A stretch of 64,000 bases of DNA from Escherichia phage mogra. The stretch lies in the sequence record MN850579.1. The stretch is one strand, 5' to 3'. Every line of letters begins with the position of its first letter. Position 1 is the stretch's first letter. Of this stretch, positions 3,825-41,597 are shown in pieces. Below the pieces are notes generated by a model. The model ran no database searches, had not been told where the DNA came from, and saw only the letters and a list, made by a program, of their open reading frames with translations. The translations under genes and the position numbers were made by a program.

Positions 3825-6038
3825 ATGATTATTGAAACGGCTAAAGAAACGATTATTGGTTCAGGCGGTAAGAGCACAGCATTCACTATTCAAGGCAATA
3901 GCAAAGTTTATAAGATTTTGTCTAATGACCTTTATACAAACAAAGAATTGGCTTGTGTACGTGAATTAATCACAAACTGTATCGATGGACAAATTCTTAA
4001 CGGTTGCACTGATAAGTTTATTGTTCAGGCTCCAGGTCGTTTGGACCCACGTTTTGTAGTTCGAGACTTTGGTCCTGGTATGAGTGATTTCACCATTCGA
4101 GGTAATGACGAAGAGCCAGGAATCTATAACTCATATTTTGCTTCAACTAAAACATCGAGTAACGATTTCATTGGTGGATTCGGACTCGGCTCTAAAGCTC
4201 CACTAGCATATACCGATACGTTTAACCTTACGTCTTATCACAACGGTGAAGTTCGTGGTTACGTAATCTACCAAGATGACACGGGTCCACAAATTAAGCC
4301 GACCTTTGTAGATAAGATGGGTCCTGATGACCGGACCGGCGTTGAAGTAGTTGTGCCTGTTAACCCAGAAGATTTTGAAAAGTTCGCATCTGAAATTGCA
4401 TATGTTATGCGTCCTCTAGGTGATATTGCAGAAGTTCGTGGTGTTAAAGATATTAAATACTTCCCTGAATTTGACGATGTATATTTGGCCAAGGAAGCTC
4501 CATGGGGTGAACGCGGTAATATCATGGCTGTTTACGGTGGTATTGTATATCCAATCGGAAGTGTTATTAAAGAACAAACATGGATGATGACACGATGCAC
4601 TACAGCTTATATTAAATTCCCTATGGGTGAACTAGATGTAGCCCCGTCTCGTGAAGCATTGTCATTTGATAAACGTACAGTAGCAAATATCCATAAACGT
4701 GTTGCAGAAATTGATGCAAAATTATTTGCTGAAGATTCTAAGAAATGGATTGATTGTAAATACCCACGTCATGTGTTCCGTGAAATTGATTCTCTTGGCT
4801 ATACCGCTCGTAAATACATGGAAAAGGCCGGGTCTAATATTGAATCACTGAAATACTCTAAAGAACAACTAACTTATTCTGAGTTGTACAAACGTTTTAA
4901 AATGGGGCCTGAGTGGTGTAATCTTGGTGTAGTATACGATATCGTTGAATCCCCTCGTCTTCGTCGTATTCGTGAAAGCGGTAGCTCAACGGCAACCATT
5001 TCAATTAACAGTCTGATTGGCATTAACATTAAAAATGTTGAAATTGTTATTGACGACGTTAATGGACGCGTTCCATTAATGCGAGCTCTTAATTCAATTG
5101 AAATGTCTAAAGACGAGGTTAAATTAACTGGTAAAGTTCCACGCGGTTTTGGTAAAAGTGTACTATTCGTTGACCCTACAGACGAAGATGCAATGAAACT
5201 TCTGGAACGCCTTAAAGTTATCTTTGATGGCGACAACATTAACATGTACAAGACTTCAGAGCTTTTACAAATCGTTAAGCCATGGATTGAAGTCAGGAAA
5301 CGGACTAATGAGCCTCGTCCTAAATCGCCAAGTGCTCATCGATTCTTTAAGAATGAAAATGACGTTTGGGTATCAGAAGACCTCTTTATTCCGGCAAGTG
5401 AAGCAGATGAAATCCAAGGTTATGCTATAGTTCGTAATCGTTCTAATGCTGAATGTCTTGACTCAGATAAAGGTTGGTTGAACTATGACTCCAATTTCTT
5501 GACCCGTATTGCTGATTTGTCAGGTATTAAAGAGTTCACTGTAGTTCGTCCACAGATTGCTAAGAAAGTTCGTAAACTTGGTGAAGTAGAATGCTTGTTC
5601 GAAAAATCAATTAATGACTATATTACGCTAATCGATAAAGTGGATTATGATGAGTATGTATCACCAAGTCGTAGAGCACAGCCCTATCTAAACCATATTA
5701 CTCGTAATGAAGAGCTTAACTTCCTTAGTAAGTATTTTAGCTCTAAGAACAAAGAAATCAGTAAAGATTTTGCAAAACTTTCAACAGTAAATAATCGTTG
5801 GGGTTGGAATCGATTCGCAGGTGCTACTAATACAGATCTGAATAAGAAGTTAGAATTGTGTGCTAAAATTTTCGATAAGCTTAAAGATAATGCTTACGAT
5901 AATGATGATAAAATGGTTATTGAATTCGAAACCAATTATCATATTGTGTCAGACTACATGGGACGACGTGGTACTCTTTCCAAAGAACAGGTCGCTCAAA
6001 TCGTTAAATTCATGAAGGCCGTGGAAGCGGCCAAATAA
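3825..6038 (+). CDS. rIIA: rIIA membrane-associated protector from prophage-induced early lysis (737 aa)
   Basis: N-terminus MIIETAKETIIGSGGKSTAFTIQGNSKVYKILSNDLYTNKELACVRELITNCIDGQ matches recalled T4 rIIA (GHKL-ATPase-like N-domain); size about 725 aa in T4; synteny with rIIB. Confidence 0.9.
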   Translation: MIIETAKETIIGSGGKSTAFTIQGNSKVYKILSNDLYTNKELACVRELITNCIDGQILNGCTDKFIVQAPGRLDPRFVVRDFGPGMSDFTIRGNDEEPGIYNSYFASTKTSSNDFIGGFGLGSKAPLAYTDTFNLTSYHNGEVRGYVIYQDDTGPQIKPTFVDKMGPDDRTGVEVVVPVNPEDFEKFASEIAYVMRPLGDIAEVRGVKDIKYFPEFDDVYLAKEAPWGERGNIMAVYGGIVYPIGSVIKEQTWMMTRCTTAYIKFPMGELDVAPSREALSFDKRTVANIHKRVAEIDAKLFAEDSKKWIDCKYPRHVFREIDSLGYTARKYMEKAGSNIESLKYSKEQLTYSELYKRFKMGPEWCNLGVVYDIVESPRLRRIRESGSSTATISINSLIGINIKNVEIVIDDVNGRVPLMRALNSIEMSKDEVKLTGKVPRGFGKSVLFVDPTDEDAMKLLERLKVIFDGDNINMYKTSELLQIVKPWIEVRKRTNEPRPKSPSAHRFFKNENDVWVSEDLFIPASEADEIQGYAIVRNRSNAECLDSDKGWLNYDSNFLTRIADLSGIKEFTVVRPQIAKKVRKLGEVECLFEKSINDYITLIDKVDYDEYVSPSRRAQPYLNHITRNEELNFLSKYFSSKNKEISKDFAKLSTVNNRWGWNRFAGATNTDLNKKLELCAKIFDKLKDNAYDNDDKMVIEFETNYHIVSDYMGRRGTLSKEQVAQIVKFMKAVEAAK

Positions 6039-11608: not shown

Positions 11609-11945
11609 GCTGAATATTATTAACGAACTTCGTAAATGTGCAGAACCTACTCAGGAAGGATGGGATATTTGGTACCATGGAGCTTATCTTGGAACTATCG
11701 TTAAAGTTAGAGCTGGGTTATATTTAATTATTCGCGAAAATTCTGAATTCCATAATGGAGTAGCTCCTGGTGGTATACGTAAAAACTTTATGGCAGCGAT
11801 CAGTTCATTTGTTGATGCAGCTTACGAAATCTATAAAGAAGATTATAAAGAATATCAGCAGTCACAACCGGTTATTCGTTCAATTGGTGTTAATAAACAA
11901 GCACAAAAATCTATTTGGCAACGTATTAAGGAATGGTTTAAATGA
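11601..11945 (+). CDS. hypothetical protein (114 aa)
   Basis: ATG 11601 with AGGAA RBS (track start 11580 is further upstream in the same frame); early-region small ORF, no motif. Confidence 0.45.
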
Positions 11946-12403
11946 AAACTTTTAAAGAACGTTTAGCTCTGTTAGATAAAGCTTTGTCGCGTGAGACTCC
12001 GGAAAGTCTGGCTGCTAAATTAGCTTCTTACGGTGGTGAATATACAGAACAAAATGTTTTAGATGAAGTTCCTGAAATCTGTTGGCAGACTCTGTATTGG
12101 GATGAAAACCAAAAGTATCAACGACGAATTGTCTGCGCAGCCAACCGTTTTAAATTAAAAGATGGACGAACTCTTATTATTCCAGGTGCTCGTCATTATT
12201 CTAAAGATATGGCAGAAGTTTTAGATGTAGTTAAACCTCAATTAGTTACTCAACAAGTTTGTGATGACGACCAAGGGTTTATTGACCAATATAGTAATTA
12301 TTGGACACGTGAAGAAGCAATGATTATTGCAACTTACGCTGGACAAGTACGTATTGAACGTGGTGGTAATGAAAAAGAACTTTATTCAGAGGACCTTTAT
12401 TAA
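11942..12403 (+). CDS. hypothetical protein (153 aa)
   Basis: ORF translationally coupled to neighbours (ATGA overlap); no motif recognised. Confidence 0.5.
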
Positions 12404-30069: not shown

Positions 30070-32325
30070 ATGCAAGTAACTAAGAGCAGTGGTGTATCCC
30101 AAAATTTTGATGCACAGAAAATTATTCAAGTCTTAACTTGGCAATGTGAAGGAACACAAATTGACCCATATGAATTGTATGAAGAAATTAAGACCCATCT
30201 TGTCGACGGGATGAGCACCAAAGATATCCAGAAGATTTGTATTAAAGTTGCAGCTAACTCGATTTCTGTCGAAGAACCTGATTATCAGTATGTCGCCGCC
30301 AAAGGGCTAATGTTTGCACTTCGTAAAGATGTATATGGGCAGTTTGAACCGCCTGCTTTTATCGACCATATTTCTTATTGTGTTAATGAAGGCAAATATG
30401 ACCCTGAGCTGTTGTCTCAATATTCAGCAGAAGAAATCATTTATCTCGATTCACAGATTAAACATGAACGAGACTTTGACCTGACTTATGCTGGTGCTAT
30501 GCAGCTTAAAGAAAAATATCTAGTTAAAGATAAAACAACTGGGAAGATTTATGAAACTCCCCAGTTTGCTATCATGGCTATTGGCATGGCCTTACACCAA
30601 GACGAAACTCATGACCGTTTGAAACATATTATTCGTTTTTATAATGCCGTTTCTACTCATCAAGTTTCATTGCCAACCCCAATTATGGCAGGTGCTCGTA
30701 CTCCAACTCGCCAGTTCTCTAGTTGTGTAGTTATTGAAGCCGGTGATTCGTTAAAATCTATTAACAAAACTTCAGCATCAATTATTGAATATATTTCTAA
30801 ACGAGCTGGTATTGGTATCAACGTTGGTATGCTTCGTGCAGAAGGTTCTAAGATCGGTATGGGTGAAGTTCGACATACGGGTGTTATTCCATTCTGGAAA
30901 CATTTCCAAACTGCAGTAAAATCTTGTTCTCAAGGTGGTATTCGTGGTGGTGCTGCTACAGCGTATTATCCGATGTGGCACTTAGAAGTAGAGAACCTAT
31001 TAGTTCTGAAAAATAACAAAGGCGTGGATGAAAACCGTATTCGACATATGGACTACGGAATTCAGATTAATGACCTTATGATGGAACGCCTTGGTAAAAA
31101 TGATTATATTACTTTATTTAGCCCTCACGAAATGTCAGGCGAACTATACTACTCGTTCTTTGAAGATCAAGATAAATTCCGTGAGCTTTATGAGAAAGCT
31201 GAAAAAGACCCAACAATCAGAAAGAAAAGAATCAAAGCACTAGAACTCTTTGAATTGTTCATGACTGAACGCTCTGGTACTGCTCGAATTTATCCGCAGT
31301 TTGTTGATAACACGAATAACTACACTCCGTTTATTCGTGAAAAAGCTCCAATTCGTCAGAGTAACTTATGTTGTGAAATCGCTATTCCAACTAATGATGT
31401 GAATGGTCCTGATGCTGAAATTGGTTTATGCACATTATCTGCTTTTGTATTAGATAAATTTGATTGGCAAGACCAAGATAAAATTAATGAACTTGCTGAA
31501 GTACAAGTACGTGCACTTGATAACCTGTTAGACTATCAAGATTATCCAGTTCCAGAAGCTTTAAAAGCTAAAAAGCGTCGTAATCTTGGTGTTGGTGTTA
31601 CGAACTATGCTGCATGGTTAGCTTCTAACTTTGCTTCATATGAAGACGCTAACGATTTGACTCATGAATTGTTTGAGAGATTGCAATATGGCCTTATCAA
31701 AGCTTCAATCAAACTCGCCAAAGAAAAAGGACGTTGCGAGTATTATTCAGACACTAAATGGTCTCGAGGCGAATTACCTATCGACTGGTACAATAAAAAA
31801 ATTGACCAAATCGCAGCCCCGAACTACGTCTGTGACTGGGAAGAACTTCGAGCTGAACTCAAAGAACATGGAATTCGTAACTCAACGTTGTCTGCACTCA
31901 TGCCTTGTGAGTCAAGCAGTCAAGTATCAAACTCTACAAACGGGATTGAGCCACCGCGTGGTCCAGTAAGTATTAAAGAATCTAAAGAAGGCAACTTCCG
32001 ACAGGTTGTTCCTAATATCGAACATAACATGAGTCTTTACGACTACGCGTGGAAACTTGCTAAGAAAGGTAATAAACCTTATTTGACCCAAGTTGCTATC
32101 ATGTTGAAATGGGTGTGCCAATCTGCTTCTGCTAATACTTACTATGACCCTGCAGTATTTGAGAAAGGTAAAGTGCCAATGTCAGTAATGCTTGACGATC
32201 TGCTTTACTTCTGGTACTTTGGCGGAAAAAACCTCTACTATCATAACACTCGTGATGGGTCTGGTACAGACGACTATGAATTAGAAACACCTAAAGCCGA
32301 TGATTGTGCAGCGTGTAAATTGTAA
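30070..32325 (+). CDS. nrdA: ribonucleotide reductase large subunit (751 aa)
   Basis: Class Ia NrdA features (N-terminal ATP-cone, ...NLCCEIA... active-site cysteines, C-terminal CxxC); T4 NrdA 754 aa as recalled. Confidence 0.92.
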   Translation: MQVTKSSGVSQNFDAQKIIQVLTWQCEGTQIDPYELYEEIKTHLVDGMSTKDIQKICIKVAANSISVEEPDYQYVAAKGLMFALRKDVYGQFEPPAFIDHISYCVNEGKYDPELLSQYSAEEIIYLDSQIKHERDFDLTYAGAMQLKEKYLVKDKTTGKIYETPQFAIMAIGMALHQDETHDRLKHIIRFYNAVSTHQVSLPTPIMAGARTPTRQFSSCVVIEAGDSLKSINKTSASIIEYISKRAGIGINVGMLRAEGSKIGMGEVRHTGVIPFWKHFQTAVKSCSQGGIRGGAATAYYPMWHLEVENLLVLKNNKGVDENRIRHMDYGIQINDLMMERLGKNDYITLFSPHEMSGELYYSFFEDQDKFRELYEKAEKDPTIRKKRIKALELFELFMTERSGTARIYPQFVDNTNNYTPFIREKAPIRQSNLCCEIAIPTNDVNGPDAEIGLCTLSAFVLDKFDWQDQDKINELAEVQVRALDNLLDYQDYPVPEALKAKKRRNLGVGVTNYAAWLASNFASYEDANDLTHELFERLQYGLIKASIKLAKEKGRCEYYSDTKWSRGELPIDWYNKKIDQIAAPNYVCDWEELRAELKEHGIRNSTLSALMPCESSSQVSNSTNGIEPPRGPVSIKESKEGNFRQVVPNIEHNMSLYDYAWKLAKKGNKPYLTQVAIMLKWVCQSASANTYYDPAVFEKGKVPMSVMLDDLLYFWYFGGKNLYYHNTRDGSGTDDYELETPKADDCAACKL

Positions 32326-33023
32326 TGAATTATCAAAAAATCTATAACGACCTAATTTCCCGAGCTCAGGCTCGGGAACCTTTATCCGAATATAAAGAGA
32401 CACATCATATAGTCCCTAAATGCATGGGAGGTTCTGATGATAAAGAAAATTTAGTTGAATTAACAGCTAGAGAACATTTTATAGCGCATGCTATTTTATC
32501 AAAGATTTATCCGGTAAAATCTGTTATATTCGCATTTTTCATGATGTGCAATATGAAAGGAACTAAGAAACGTCATTATAAAGTTCATTCTAAAATATAT
32601 GCCCATGCAAAGAAGTTAAATTCGCAATTTCGCAAAGGTACGGTCATTTCTGAAGAAACGAGACTGAAAATATCAAAAGCGAAAACAGGTCTGCGTTTAA
32701 CAGAAGAAACCAAACACAAAATATCGGCGGCAACCAAAGGAAGGGCTAAAAGCGAAGAAACTAAGAAAAAGATGAGAAAGCCTAAAACTGAAGAAGCTAA
32801 AAAGAATATAGCTGCTGCTAAAGTTGGCGTGCTTAATCCGATGTATGGTACAATTTCTCCGACAAGAGATGTTCCTCATACTAAAGAAACTCGTGATTTG
32901 ATTTCTTTGAGAACTAAACAAGGAGCAGAGTATCCACCTTGCCCGCATTGTGGCAAGAAAGTTAATAAAGGCAATGCTCTAAGATGGCATTATGATAAAT
33001 GTAAATTTAAGGATTCTAAATGA
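32325..33023 (+). CDS. mobE: HNH homing endonuclease with NUMOD3-like repeats and C-terminal Zn-ribbon (232 aa), at the T4 mobE locus
   Basis: HNH core ...ETHHIVPKCMGGSDDKENLVELTAREHFIAH...; repeated EET(R/K)xKIS modules; CPHCGKKVNKGNALRWHYDKC; inserted between nrdA and nrdB with start/stop overlaps (TAATG, ATGA). Confidence 0.75.
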   Translation: MNYQKIYNDLISRAQAREPLSEYKETHHIVPKCMGGSDDKENLVELTAREHFIAHAILSKIYPVKSVIFAFFMMCNMKGTKKRHYKVHSKIYAHAKKLNSQFRKGTVISEETRLKISKAKTGLRLTEETKHKISAATKGRAKSEETKKKMRKPKTEEAKKNIAAAKVGVLNPMYGTISPTRDVPHTKETRDLISLRTKQGAEYPPCPHCGKKVNKGNALRWHYDKCKFKDSK

Positions 33024-34159
33024 GTACAGTTTTTAATACAAATCCAGTTGATGTTTTGAATGAACCGATGTTCTTTGGTTCTGGATTAGGTTTAGCTCGA
33101 TATGATATTCAACGACATCGAGTATTTGAAGAACTCATTGAGCGGCAACTCTCGTTCTTTTGGCGTCCCGAGGAAGTAAACTTGATGTTGGACTCTGCGC
33201 AGTTCAATAAGCTTCCTCAGTTCCAACAGGACATCTTTACAAACAATCTTAAGTATCAATCATTATTAGATTCTATCCAAGGCAGAGCCCCATCTGCGGT
33301 ACTTATGGCACTGATTTCCGACCCTTCATTAGATACGTGGGTTGCAACATGGACATTCAGTGAAACTATTCACTCTCGTTCATATACTCATATTATGCGA
33401 AATCTTTATACCGATCCATCCAAAGTATTTGATGAGATTGTATTAGACGAAGCAATAATGAAACGAGCTGAATCAATAGGTAAATATTACGATGATGTTC
33501 TAGTCAAGACTCGCCTTTACCAGAATGCTTTAGAAGAATATCACGAGTTTAGCGAAGGCGTAAAACAGGCTAAATACGAACTAATGCGTTCTCTTTACCT
33601 CTGTCTGCACGTAATCAACGCTCTGGAAGCTATTCGTTTTTACGTATCATTTGCATGTACTTTCAACTTCCATAAAAATATGGAAATTATGGAAGGTAAC
33701 GCAAAGATTATGAAGTTCATTGCTCGTGACGAACAACTCCACCTCAAGGGTACTCAATACATTATCCGTCAACTTCAATCTGGTACTGATGGTGATGAGT
33801 GGGTTCAAATTGCTAAAGAATGCGAACAAGAAGCAGTTGATATTTTTATGGAAGTAAATAGACAAGAGAAGGAATGGGCTGCACACCTCTTTAAAGACGG
33901 TACATGCCCAGGTATCAATACGCAGAGTATGTGTGCTTTTGTTGATTACTTGACTGTGTCTCGTATGAAACAGTGCGGTTTGCCATGCCCAATCACTGAT
34001 GCTCCGACCAAGCATCCGTATCCTTGGATTCGTGAATATCTGAACTCTGATTTAGTTCAAGCAGCTCCTCAGGAAGTTGAAATCAGTTCTTATCTTGTCG
34101 CACAAATTGATAATGATGTAGACCAAAATGTAATCAATTCATACAAAAAATATTTCTAA
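33020..34159 (+). CDS. nrdB: ribonucleotide reductase small subunit, uninterrupted (379 aa)
   Basis: Di-iron/tyrosyl-radical R2 family by position and size; continuous frame (T4 nrdB carries a group I intron). Confidence 0.9.
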   Translation: MSTVFNTNPVDVLNEPMFFGSGLGLARYDIQRHRVFEELIERQLSFFWRPEEVNLMLDSAQFNKLPQFQQDIFTNNLKYQSLLDSIQGRAPSAVLMALISDPSLDTWVATWTFSETIHSRSYTHIMRNLYTDPSKVFDEIVLDEAIMKRAESIGKYYDDVLVKTRLYQNALEEYHEFSEGVKQAKYELMRSLYLCLHVINALEAIRFYVSFACTFNFHKNMEIMEGNAKIMKFIARDEQLHLKGTQYIIRQLQSGTDGDEWVQIAKECEQEAVDIFMEVNRQEKEWAAHLFKDGTCPGINTQSMCAFVDYLTVSRMKQCGLPCPITDAPTKHPYPWIREYLNSDLVQAAPQEVEISSYLVAQIDNDVDQNVINSYKKYF

Positions 34160-39310: not shown

Positions 39311-39349
39311 GTTTACAACATGGTGGAGTTGTGATACTATAACTCTACC
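39311..39349 (+). promoter_or_regulatory. early promoter with dyad symmetry
   Basis: GTTTAC at 39311-39316, TACTAT at 39335-39340, imperfect 9-bp dyad GGTGGAGTT/AACTCTACC. Confidence 0.55.
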
Positions 39350-39368: not shown

Positions 39369-39605
39369 ATGCTAAGTGAAAACCCAATTACAGTACACGA
39401 ATTTCAGATTAAAGTAAAAGAATTTGCTCAAGCACTCATCAATAAAGTGTCTGAACGTTTCCAAGATGCATCATTACGAGTTATTCAAGAATCTCCACGT
39501 TCTTTTCTCATAATCGTTAATCCTAAAGATGGTGACCAAATTACTAATCTTAAATTAGGCAGTGATGGTCTTGTTGAAGCAACTCGAGTATACGGAACAC
39601 TATAA
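39369..39605 (+). CDS. hypothetical protein (78 aa)
   Basis: ATG with GAGGAAA RBS downstream of an early promoter. Confidence 0.5.
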   Translation: MLSENPITVHEFQIKVKEFAQALINKVSERFQDASLRVIQESPRSFLIIVNPKDGDQITNLKLGSDGLVEATRVYGTL

Positions 39606-39725
39606 TGAGAGCTATCTCATTACTATCAAGAATGGTCATAAATCTGAGCACTACCAACTTAGCCTGTCTAATCCGGTTAAAGGTATTGTTGAATCAGAAT
39701 CTGTTTATATCTCCTAAGGATTGTT

Positions 39726-40718
39726 ATGTTACCTGTCGTCGGAAAACTTATTTCTCCAAAAGAACTGGCTGAGATTATTCCTTTATCGGAAGCTTACGCA
39801 TCACAAGTGGCTTCTCATCGCGAACAAGTTAATTCGATTATGAACGGTGAAGACCCACGCAAACTTATTGTTGTAGGTCCTTGTTCAATTCATGACCCTA
39901 TTGCTGCTGTTGAATACGGCAAACGTCTGGCTGAACTTCAAACTAGTCTTCCTAATGTTCTGTTAGTGATGCGCGTTTATTTTGAAAAGCCTCGAACTAC
40001 CGTAGGTTGGAAAGGTCTTGTAAATGATCCATATCTTGACGGAAGTTTTGATATGAACCACGGTCTTATAGTTGCACGAACATTGTGTCGTAAACTTCTA
40101 CGTATGGGACTTCCATTAGCAACTGAAGTATTAGACCCATTCACGATTAAGTATCTTTCTGGTATTTTCTCATGGGTTGCTATTGGCGCCCGTACGACTG
40201 AAAGTCAGACACATCGTGAAATTGCTTCAGGTCTACCGATGTGCGTAGGCTTCAAGAACGCAACCAATGGTTCTATTAAAGTAGCTACAGACGCGATGTA
40301 TAGTGCCGCCTGGCCTCATCGGTATATGGGTATGGACGTCGATGGTACTGTAGGCATTGTTGAAGCTGAAGGTAATCAGAATACGCATATCGTATTGCGT
40401 GGCGGGACCAACGGCCCGAACTATCATTCTTCTGATATTCAAGAAGCTTCTAACAAAGCAAGTGCAGTAGGTCTGAATCATTATGTAATGGTTGACTGTA
40501 GCCATGCAAACGCTGCTGGGCATTATAGCAATCAAATTGGTATTGGTAAAAATTTAGCAGCTAATGATTTGGTCAAAGGAATTATGATAGAATCATTCCT
40601 ACATGAAGGAAATCAAAAAATTTCTGATAATATGTCCTATGGCGTTTCCATTACCGATGCGTGCATCAGTTGGGAACAAACTAAAGAGCTGTTAACTTAT
40701 ATTAATAAGGTTCAATAA
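39726..40718 (+). CDS. 3-deoxy-D-arabino-heptulosonate-7-phosphate (DAHP) synthase, class I AroG/AroF/AroH-like (330 aa)
   Basis: Hallmark motifs ...LIVVGPCSIHDP..., ...MRVYFEKPRTTVGWKGLVNDP..., ...WVAIGARTTESQTHREIASGLPMCVGFKN..., ...ESFLHEGNQ...SITDACISWE... align with recalled E. coli AroG; about 20 residues shorter at the N-terminus. Confidence 0.8.
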   Translation: MLPVVGKLISPKELAEIIPLSEAYASQVASHREQVNSIMNGEDPRKLIVVGPCSIHDPIAAVEYGKRLAELQTSLPNVLLVMRVYFEKPRTTVGWKGLVNDPYLDGSFDMNHGLIVARTLCRKLLRMGLPLATEVLDPFTIKYLSGIFSWVAIGARTTESQTHREIASGLPMCVGFKNATNGSIKVATDAMYSAAWPHRYMGMDVDGTVGIVEAEGNQNTHIVLRGGTNGPNYHSSDIQEASNKASAVGLNHYVMVDCSHANAAGHYSNQIGIGKNLAANDLVKGIMIESFLHEGNQKISDNMSYGVSITDACISWEQTKELLTYINKVQ

Positions 40719-41299
40719 TGAAAGCTAGCACATATCTTCAGATTGCTTATCTGATTTCTCAAGAATCAAAATGTTGTTCATGGAAAGTTGGCGCCGTCAT
40801 TGAAAAAGATGGACGCATTATTTCTACAGGTTATAATGGCTCTCCTTCAGGTGGTACAAACTGTTGCGAACATGCATCCGAAAACGGTTGGTTGAAGAAT
40901 AAACCAAGCCCGGTCATCGTTGCTGGGCATAAAGAAGGCACTACAGCATTTGGACGGGTGGATAATTTTGTTTTGGCTAAAGAACATCGGGCCGCTCATA
41001 GTGCATGGTCTGCTAATAACGAAATCCATGCTGAATTGAATGCAATTTTGTTTGCAGCTCGTAAAGGTAATTCTATTGAAGGTGCTACGTTATATACGAC
41101 GCTTTCTCCGTGTCCTGATTGCACTAAAGCTATTACACAGTCAGGTATTAAAAAGGTTGTATACGCAGAATTATATGACAGATCTCCTGAAAATTGGGCA
41201 GACATTCTAAAACAAGCCGGTATTGAAGTAATTCAGTACTCTCGTAATAATCTTCGTTCTCTGAATTGGGAACAAATCCGAAACTTTTGTGGTGAATAA
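40718..41299 (+). CDS. cd: dCMP deaminase (193 aa)
   Basis: Zinc-binding deaminase motifs ...HAELNAI... and ...LSPCPDCTKAI...; same size as T4 Cd (193 aa). Confidence 0.9.
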   Translation: MKASTYLQIAYLISQESKCCSWKVGAVIEKDGRIISTGYNGSPSGGTNCCEHASENGWLKNKPSPVIVAGHKEGTTAFGRVDNFVLAKEHRAAHSAWSANNEIHAELNAILFAARKGNSIEGATLYTTLSPCPDCTKAITQSGIKKVVYAELYDRSPENWADILKQAGIEVIQYSRNNLRSLNWEQIRNFCGE

Positions 41300-41300
41300 T

Positions 41301-41597
41301 ATGATTTTAACTGAACAAGAGACTATGGTTCTTCGTGAACGTATTAAAACTATTCTGTCTGTAGGCGTTCATCGTGTTGTATTTGAAAAGGCTAACGGTG
41401 AGGTACGCACTATGTTTGCTTCTCGCGATGAACTTGAAGTCAAATATGAAAATAACAATCCGGCAACAGAAGTTCGTTCTGAACCTCGTGAATCAGTTCG
41501 AGCATTCGACACCAAGTTAGGACAGTGGCGTTCTTTCCGCCTTGATAAAGTAATTTCGGTTGATGGTACTCCGGTAGAACGTTTGCTTCTTATGTAA
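41301..41597 (+). CDS. hypothetical protein (98 aa from ATG 41301)
   Basis: ATG 2 nt after the cd stop; the track start 41289 is a GTG inside cd. Confidence 0.45.
   Translation: MILTEQETMVLRERIKTILSVGVHRVVFEKANGEVRTMFASRDELEVKYENNNPATEVRSEPRESVRAFDTKLGQWRSFRLDKVISVDGTPVERLLLM

Follow-up and report, generated by a model that had tools for sequence, protein, structure and literature searches.

Flux through the shikimate pathway is controlled mainly at DAHP synthase (DAHPS), and the engineering of aromatic overproducers classically begins by lifting the feedback inhibition of this enzyme. The closest described enzymes are AroF, AroG and AroH of Escherichia coli, with which the phage enzyme analysed in this work shares the family, the residues binding metal and PEP as well as erythrose-4-phosphate (E4P), the barrel, the N-terminal helices and the beta6a/beta6b hairpin. 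Like AroF, it carries Gly at the Tyr-type specificity position, and it differs from AroF and AroG by 8-9 fewer N-terminal residues, two shorter loops, a shorter C-terminal tail and six substitutions in the pocket region. In type I-alpha enzymes the Phe site is supplied by the N-terminal extension and the beta-hairpin (PMC4735112), and feedback-resistant AroG alleles include P150L, D146N, S180F, L175D, F209A/S, V221A and Q151 variants. AroG P150L is completely feedback-resistant, and F209A and F209S are resistant too; Q151/Q152 and S180/S181 bind the inhibitor through its main chain, S180F confers resistance, and the D155 salt bridge stabilises the inhibitor site (PMC9529685). The phage clade described below is naturally substituted at positions 150, 151, 180 and 209 and additionally changed at the salt-bridge residue D155. 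The alleles are single laboratory mutations, whereas the phage set is natural, combined, fixed, composed of other residues and predicted in its effect.

An example from nature of a DAH7PS that does not respond to aromatic amino acids is PhzC of Pseudomonas aeruginosa, with which chorismate flows when these amino acids are high (PMC6435475). PhzC/PaeDAH7PS-PA1901 is a dedicated extra DAH7PS that follows the same logic as proposed here for the phage, and its aromatic allosteric sites are absent. It differs in being a type IIB enzyme belonging to a phenazine cluster, type II enzymes being less than 10% identical to type I. Its insensitivity, which was demonstrated by experiment, results from the absence of helices and from a differing quaternary structure, whereas that of the phage enzyme is predicted from sequence.

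Annotated phage DAHPS (PHROG 5045, ORF64 of phage phiC120 and the gene of Klebsiella phage KLB31) belong to the same gene family as the protein studied here. The genes of phiC120 (PMC8022965) and KLB31 (PMC11845039) were each mentioned as a presumed amino-acid auxiliary metabolic gene, with no experiments. The gene is annotated as aroF, AroG or "DAHP synthetase" in more than 200 phage records, and our copy is about 99% identical to those of JS09, PhAPEC2 and phiC120, among others; the novelty implied by the initial annotation was therefore overstated. The gene itself is a known phage auxiliary metabolic gene, and its value lies in the signature of its regulatory site. Our literature searches found no study of the activity, regulation or regulatory-site sequence of a phage DAHPS, and the searchable papers contained no analysis of its N-terminus, synteny or presence/absence.

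The stretch of DNA analysed (the window, 64,000 nucleotides) is part of a Mosigvirus genome, a T4 relative of the RB69/JS09 kind, and contains the DAHPS gene in the following setting.

39311-39340, plus strand: probable early promoter, GGTTTACA-N17-TACTAT, homologous by position and sequence to a T4 early promoter
39369-39605, plus strand: cd.2 homologue (DUF7320), upstream gene of the putative DAHPS transcription unit (ORF, profile match, synteny)
39602-39620, plus strand: left arm of a direct repeat, a degenerate version of the cd start (ATAATGAGAGCTATCTCAT), identical to the right arm at 16 of 19 positions
39726-40718, plus strand: gene of a phage type I-alpha DAHP synthase, AroF-like, 330 aa (ORF; Pfam, NCBIfam and PHROG matches; AroF structure 6agm; AlphaFold2 model)
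40715-40733, plus strand: right arm of the direct repeat, the true cd start (repeat comparison; TAATG overlap)
40718-41299, plus strand: cd, dCMP deaminase, 193 aa, the downstream, probably co-transcribed gene (ORF and profile match)

The DAHPS ORF begins with ATG, is preceded by an AAGGA ribosome-binding site (39716-39720, 5 nt upstream of the start codon) and is not extendable at its N-terminus, given the upstream in-frame stops. It is preceded by homologues of pseT, cd.4, cd.3 and cd.2, is directly followed by cd and is embedded in the nucleotide-metabolism cluster frd-td-nrdA-nrdB...cd. Its stop codon and the cd ATG overlap as TAATG, implying probable translational coupling of the two genes. 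Its DNA matches that of numerous Escherichia and Shigella phages in the databases at 99.4-99.7% identity. The initial annotation had described a 330-aa ORF upstream of cd, encoding a class I DAHP synthase and lacking a counterpart in the T4 cd.x interval, and on these points it was correct, the slot being filled in T4 by the small ORF cd.1. Every AroG/AroF/AroH-type motif that it quoted was also located in the protein, namely GPCSIHDP (residues 51-58), KPRTTVGWKGL (88-98), AIGARTTESQTHRE (152-165), VGFKN (174-178) and ITDACISWE (309-317).

The ORF product is a type I-alpha (class I) DAHP synthase. A profile search with Pfam PF00793 gave E = 9.5e-75 and 251 bits (cutoff 25.5), and the NCBIfam models TIGR00034 (aroFGH equivalog, 426 bits) and NF009395 (subfamily, 455 bits) likewise scored above their cutoffs of 173 and 343, whereas the isozyme-specific models remained below theirs (AroG equivalog, 364 vs 568; AroH, 385 vs 463). 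The protein also matched PHROG 5045, "phospho-2-dehydro-3-deoxyheptonate aldolase", with E = 1.5e-181. Its closest solved structure is the Tyr-sensitive AroF of E. coli (6AGM/6AGL, E = 2e-104), followed by Neisseria meningitidis DAH7PS and AroG, and its full-length identity to the E. coli enzymes is 50% (AroF), 47% (AroG) and 44% (AroH). The AlphaFold2 model (pLDDT 91, pTM 0.91) shows the (beta/alpha)8 barrel, the N-terminal extension and the internal hairpin, with helices at residues 11-17 and 22-39 and the beta6a/beta6b strands at 198-203 and 209-214, and superposes on the structures of AroG and NmeDAH7PS with TM 0.94-0.95, reaching 0.95 for AroG, and rmsd 1.6-1.8 Å.

Functional segments were mapped within the gene as follows.

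39726-39755, plus strand: residues 1-10 (MLPVVGKLIS), a shortened N-terminus without counterparts of AroG 1-8 and AroF 1-9 (alignments)
39882-40001, plus strand: metal ligand Cys53 through the KPRTT E4P/PEP motif, residues 88-92 (mapping to AroG)
39882-39884, 39987-40001, 40503-40505, 40590-40592 and 40656-40658, plus strand: Cys53, KPRTT, H260, E289 and D311, respectively (mapping to AroG)
40146-40163, plus strand: remodelled inhibitor-site segment I141-K142...G146, corresponding to AroG P150, Q151 and D155 (clade-specific substitutions)
40236-40238, plus strand: Pro171, in place of AroG Ser180 and AroF Ser181 (clade-specific substitution)
40323-40367, plus strand: regulatory beta-hairpin (beta6a/beta6b) with Y200 (AroG F209) and A214 (AroG T223) (AlphaFold2 strands; clade-specific substitutions)

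Alignment with AroF, AroG and AroH revealed none of the losses of catalytic residues that had been named beforehand as grounds for rejecting the assignment. The four metal ligands C53, H260, E289 and D311 (AroG C61, H268, E302 and D326) and eleven PEP/E4P residues, including the equivalents of AroG R92, K97, R99, T100, R165, K186 and R234, are invariant in five phage genera. The phage protein is very probably an active DAHP synthase, predicted to convert PEP and E4P into DAHP.

The phage enzyme is 20 aa shorter than AroG, a shortfall to which the N-terminus contributes 8 residues, internal indels a net 7 (mainly the loss of 5 aa from one loop and of 2 aa from another) and a shorter C-terminal tail 5. 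The number of residues before GPCS is 50 in the window phage, 58 in AroG, 59 in AroF and 57 in AroH, so that 8, 9 and 7 N-terminal residues are absent relative to the three isozymes, and the greater part of the N-terminal extension is still present. The short N-terminus is common to 28 of 28 members of the phage clade, with 46-50 aa before GPCS vs at least 56 in bacteria. The missing stretch corresponds to AroG 1-8 and includes Asp6 and Asp7, two residues that, as Shumilin et al. 2002 reportedly described, touch bound Phe from the neighbouring subunit. Asn8 and Ile11 of AroF are feedback-resistance positions according to what Jossek et al. 2001 and related work reportedly found, and for AroF N8K nothing was found in the literature search. 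Phe-bound AroG (1KFL) has 350 modelled residues and the uninhibited entries 338-343, which, together with the published composition of the Phe site (PMC4735112), is consistent with a role of the missing stretch in the inhibitor site.

The pattern of substitutions in the clade bears more directly on regulation. We scanned the alignment columns of 28 phage and 98 bacterial homologues for positions at least 80% conserved in bacteria at which the phage clade is fixed (at least 90%) for a residue found in at most 5% of the bacterial sequences. Among the 145 columns conserved at this level in bacteria, 126 have the bacterial residue as the commonest one in the phage clade too, and only six are fixed differently, corresponding in AroG to P150I, Q151K, D155G, S180P, F209Y and T223A. 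Five of these six coincide with published inhibitor-site or feedback-resistance positions (P = 5e-6 in a hypergeometric test with a set of 11 eligible allosteric columns), and T223 is part of the regulatory hairpin, two positions past V221. What sets the clade apart is a concentration of changes in the inhibitor pocket, its catalytic site being unchanged. Nearly all phage-clade members have Ile-Lys...Pro where bacteria have Pro-Gln...Ser, a combination found in none of the bacterial homologues (P-Q-S in 85 of 97, V-Q-S in 9). The replacing residues are almost invariant (at least 96%) in the phage clade although the clade diverges to 56% identity, and the site could thus still bind something or be constrained at the dimer interface. 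In the pocket by which the feedback-regulated AroF, AroG and AroH are recognised, the phage enzyme has I, K, G, P and Y instead, and the AroG 1-8 counterparts are absent. The regulatory features that it keeps are D146, L179, V221, the hairpin and most of the extension, along with Gly at the AroG-211/AroF-212 position, as in Tyr-sensitive AroF, and P at AroF-148.

That the clade-defining changes sit on the inhibitor pocket supports, short of proof, a loss or alteration of aromatic amino-acid feedback in the phage enzyme. Based on the single-mutant phenotypes of the E. coli enzymes at these positions, Phe, Tyr and Trp would probably fail to inhibit it effectively, a prediction made with somewhat better than even confidence; the laboratory substitutions tested (Leu, Ala/Leu, Phe and Ala/Ser) differ from the natural Ile, Lys, Pro and Tyr. 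The initial annotation had also proposed lost feedback, ascribing it to a start about 20 residues later than that of AroG. The pocket substitutions agree with the direction of this proposal; the reason given for it largely falls away, with only 8 N-terminal residues missing relative to AroG and 9 relative to AroF.

A tblastn survey recovered 212 phage records with the gene, each with a full-length, single-piece match. About 139 of them are Mosigvirus records at 95% identity or higher, across which the gene is about 99% identical, and the other carriers belong to Marfavirus (phages of Klebsiella), Kanagawavirus (of Enterobacter and Edwardsiella), Winklervirus (of Serratia and Erwinia) and Bragavirus (of Proteus). 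A few weak, unrelated matches were also present among the tblastn results. In the homology search the phage sequences formed a tight clade of 24 clusters, with lengths of 319-343 aa and identities of 56% or more, followed by ordinary bacterial enzymes (341-385 aa, at most 55% identity). The close members of the clade are all on T4-like phages, and the borderline members P0020 and P0022 are on T4-like phage contigs, P0020 with the order pseT-x-DAHPS-cd, while P0024, with bacterial neighbours, is the first bacterial-type match. In five T4-like genera (Mosigvirus, Kanagawavirus, Marfavirus, Winklervirus and Bragavirus) DAHPS occupies the slot between cd.2 and cd, and synteny is likewise conserved in a metagenomic T4-like contig. 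Serratia phage X20 has a cd.1 homologue between DAHPS and cd, and the small ORF beside DAHPS in Proteus phage PM2 had no similarity to T4 cd.1.

Between genera dN/dS ranges from 0.14 to 0.20, and the gene is under purifying selection. Differences within Mosigvirus are mostly non-synonymous (8 non-synonymous to 1 synonymous and 7 to 3 in the pairs compared), at 5-10 per pair too few to interpret. The GC3 of DAHPS (0.29) matches that of the adjoining genes, its composition being fully ameliorated, and a search for a recent bacterial donor yielded none, the nearest bacterial homologues being at most 55% identical and taxonomically scattered. The low between-genus dN/dS, the ameliorated GC3 and the lack of a close bacterial donor point to a gene acquired long ago and kept by selection. 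RB69 is without the gene, its cd.2 abutting cd, and the empty cd.2-cd junction was found in ten records, including RB69, mar005P1, JK36, JK42, moha and ECO111 5-P, a gene-minus share of about 7% of the Mosigvirus records; the DAHPS gene is therefore accessory, that is, dispensable.

T4 has an annotated early promoter between cd.3 and cd.2, GGTTTACT-N17-TATTAT, and the window site at 39311-39340 is given weight because it is homologous to this T4 site and not as a scan result. It was one of 15 promoter-like sites in a scan that was not enriched over shuffles, and the generic promoter and terminator sites were dropped for this lack of enrichment, only the T4-homologous one being kept. The scan contained no terminator-like site between this promoter and DAHPS. 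A conserved T4-type promoter with no intervening terminator makes early co-expression of DAHPS with cd.2 and cd likely.

The explanation that we consider best overall, and hold to be rather more probable than its negation, is that of a competent DAHPS with a rebuilt allosteric site, probably unchecked during infection. The family assignment, the conserved catalytic residues, the site changes of the clade, the gene order and the purifying selection are direct results, and from them we infer enzymatic activity, early expression, feedback insensitivity and physiological benefit along the following lines. A T4-like ancestor would long ago have gained an AroF-like, Tyr-type bacterial enzyme, the gene of which would since have persisted between cd.2 and cd as an early, accessory gene, transcribed from the conserved T4-type early promoter and coupled in its translation to cd. 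The product would be a metal-dependent, catalytically competent enzyme condensing PEP and erythrose-4-phosphate into DAHP. Its allosteric machinery appears to have been rebuilt, with 8-9 N-terminal residues gone and I/K/G/P/Y/A in place of the bacterial P/Q/D/S/F/T in the Phe/Tyr pocket, and the most likely consequence would be that inhibition by Phe, Tyr and Trp is abolished. Carbon would then continue to enter the infected cell's shikimate pathway in the presence of abundant aromatic amino acids, a state in which the host isozymes would be inhibited and, with host transcription shut off, could not be derepressed. The DAHP formed would be processed by host AroB-AroC to chorismate, to be used for aromatic amino acids and/or for cofactors such as folate and quinones. 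If the phage clade did evolve feedback resistance, this would amount to a virus overriding host allosteric control, beyond the mere addition of enzyme, and would provide metabolic engineering with an off-the-shelf, feedback-resistant type I-alpha enzyme already optimised by evolution.

The phage enzyme might instead be an ordinary feedback-regulated DAHPS, probably Tyr-sensitive like AroF, that simply adds enzyme copies during infection, the substitutions being neutral or offsetting, at the dimer interface, the loss of N-terminal length. AroF is indeed the nearest solved relative, and the AroF-212 Gly, the D146 equivalent, the AroF-148 P, L179, V221, the hairpin and the greater part of the extension are all still present. 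However, five of the six clade-defining substitutions fall on positions that contact the inhibitor or at which changes weaken or abolish inhibition (PMC9529685), and the AroG 1-8 counterparts are missing from every clade member, making a still-regulated enzyme unlikely, though far from negligible. The same substitutions allow a different reading, in which the allosteric pocket was re-purposed and the invariant Lys142, Tyr200 and Pro171 bind another effector, coupling entry into the shikimate pathway to a phage-relevant signal; candidate effectors, offered as examples within this already improbable reading, would be the anionic intermediates chorismate and prephenate or a metabolite of the nucleotide pool. 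Invariance of at least 96% at 56% clade identity is unexpected for a decaying pocket, the hairpin survives, as does most of the extension, and the gene lies inside, and is probably translationally coupled to, the nucleotide-metabolism cluster frd-td-nrdA-nrdB...cd. Packing at the tight-dimer interface can, however, account for the invariance, and hairpin position 214 is variable. It is also conceivable, if rather doubtful, that T4-like phages of Enterobacterales possess a phage-only type I-alpha DAHPS subclass with a converted pocket, in which Ile/Lys/Gly/Pro/Tyr/Ala either locks the enzyme on or senses a phage-relevant metabolite; were the pocket so converted, the supply of chorismate, for example for folate cofactors, would be tied to the co-expressed nucleotide-synthesis genes.

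A shift of substrate to arabinose-5-P or another sugar phosphate, feeding DNA arabinosylation or another sugar pathway, is highly improbable and largely refuted. It could draw on the fold common to KDO8P synthase, on the presence of both DAHPS and an arabinose-5-P isomerase in most Mosigviruses and on the use of pentose-phosphate intermediates by both pathways. Against it, KPRTT, D326 and all E4P/PEP residues are the same as in AroF, AroG and AroH, and the NCBIfam matches comprised only DAHPS families, with none to KdsA; a KDO8P-like or otherwise altered substrate, which the initial annotation had entertained as the condensation of PEP with another sugar phosphate, was rejected on these grounds. 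RB69-type DNA contains arabosylated 5-hydroxycytosine made from ribulose-5-P (PMC13326640, PMC6024577), by a pathway that, as published, requires no DAHPS step (PMC13326640). RB69 arabinosylates its DNA without the gene, and the RB69-type arabinosylation module (RB69 gp45-55), with its genes for arabinose-5-P isomerase, a kinase/uridylyltransferase and an arabinosyltransferase, is found near gene 43, in a genome region different from that of DAHPS. The distributions across host genera also mismatch, DAHPS being present in 25 Klebsiella phage records, with fewer than three isomerase matches in Klebsiella, and the isomerase in 57 Acinetobacter phages, with a DAHPS match in only 4. The link to DNA modification, previously put forward as speculation, was accordingly abandoned. 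A role in defence or counter-defence gained no support, as no PADLOC family matched at E <= 0.01. That the gene is a decaying or non-functional hitch-hiker would fit its absence from about 7% of Mosigvirus records and the mostly non-synonymous differences within the genus, but it is intact and full-length in 212 of 212 phage records, with a between-genus dN/dS of 0.14-0.20, conserved catalytic residues and ameliorated codon composition, which leaves next to no credence for this reading.

If feedback resistance did evolve in the clade, the natural gene-minus relatives RB69, moha and JK36 would constitute a simple system for assessing the worth of aromatic or chorismate flux to a lytic phage. 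In the window the DAHPS cassette is flanked by a 19-nt imperfect direct repeat, formed by the degenerate cd start at 39602-39620 and the true one at 40715-40733. Recombination between the two arms would yield exactly the RB69 junction, an observation that is suggestive, not decisive; the repeat score was reached in 27 of 2000 shuffles.

The gene order of Serratia phage X20, cd.2-DAHPS-cd.1-cd, where DAHPS encodes the phage type I-alpha DAHP synthase and cd the dCMP deaminase, implies repeated gene gain and loss in the cd.2-cd slot; the X20 ORF lying between DAHPS and cd (3998-4339 of the X20 locus, L008) is a homologue of T4 cd.1 (30% identity, E = 2e-10). As a separate observation, the name mar005P1 covers records of unlike content: OZ035759.1 carries DAHPS (99.7% identity), whereas the cd.2-cd junction is empty in four LR0273xx records (LR027383.1/86/90/91).

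The DAHPS cassette of the window is bracketed by an imperfect repeat, listed here with the other features of the window.

Features of the window
32325-33023, (+): homing-endonuclease-type ORF of 232 aa with HNH and NUMOD3 motifs
39311-39340, (+): probable T4-type early promoter, near-identical to an annotated T4 early promoter
39602-39620 and 40715-40733: 19-nt imperfect direct repeat of the cd start, bracketing the DAHPS cassette
41289-41597, (+): 31.1-like gene downstream of cd, with a WYL_2 / Sm-like SH3 barrel domain

The 120-nt spacer 5' of DAHPS opens with ATGAGAGCTA, a degenerate copy of the cd start that translates as MRAIS, against MKAST in cd itself. The T4 counterpart of the early promoter is annotated and located between cd.3 and cd.2. 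At DAHPS residues 5-6 (window 39738-39743) the window allele reads MLPVVGKL and those of JS09 and 308Ecol101PP read MLPVIRKL. Differences in DAHPS within Mosigvirus were mainly non-synonymous, with non-synonymous to synonymous counts (8:1 and 7:3) too small for interpretation.

The cd gene of RB69 (11743-12252 of its locus, L004) is annotated at 169 aa, versus 193 aa in the window and in T4. In other Mosigviruses the cd stop lies 72 nt beyond the end of the RB69 match, an indication that RB69 cd is C-terminally shorter or was mis-called. RB69 also differs between nrdA and nrdB, where it has only a 55-nt gap, while in the window the HNH/NUMOD3 ORF is flanked by nrdA (30070-32325) and nrdB (33020-34159).
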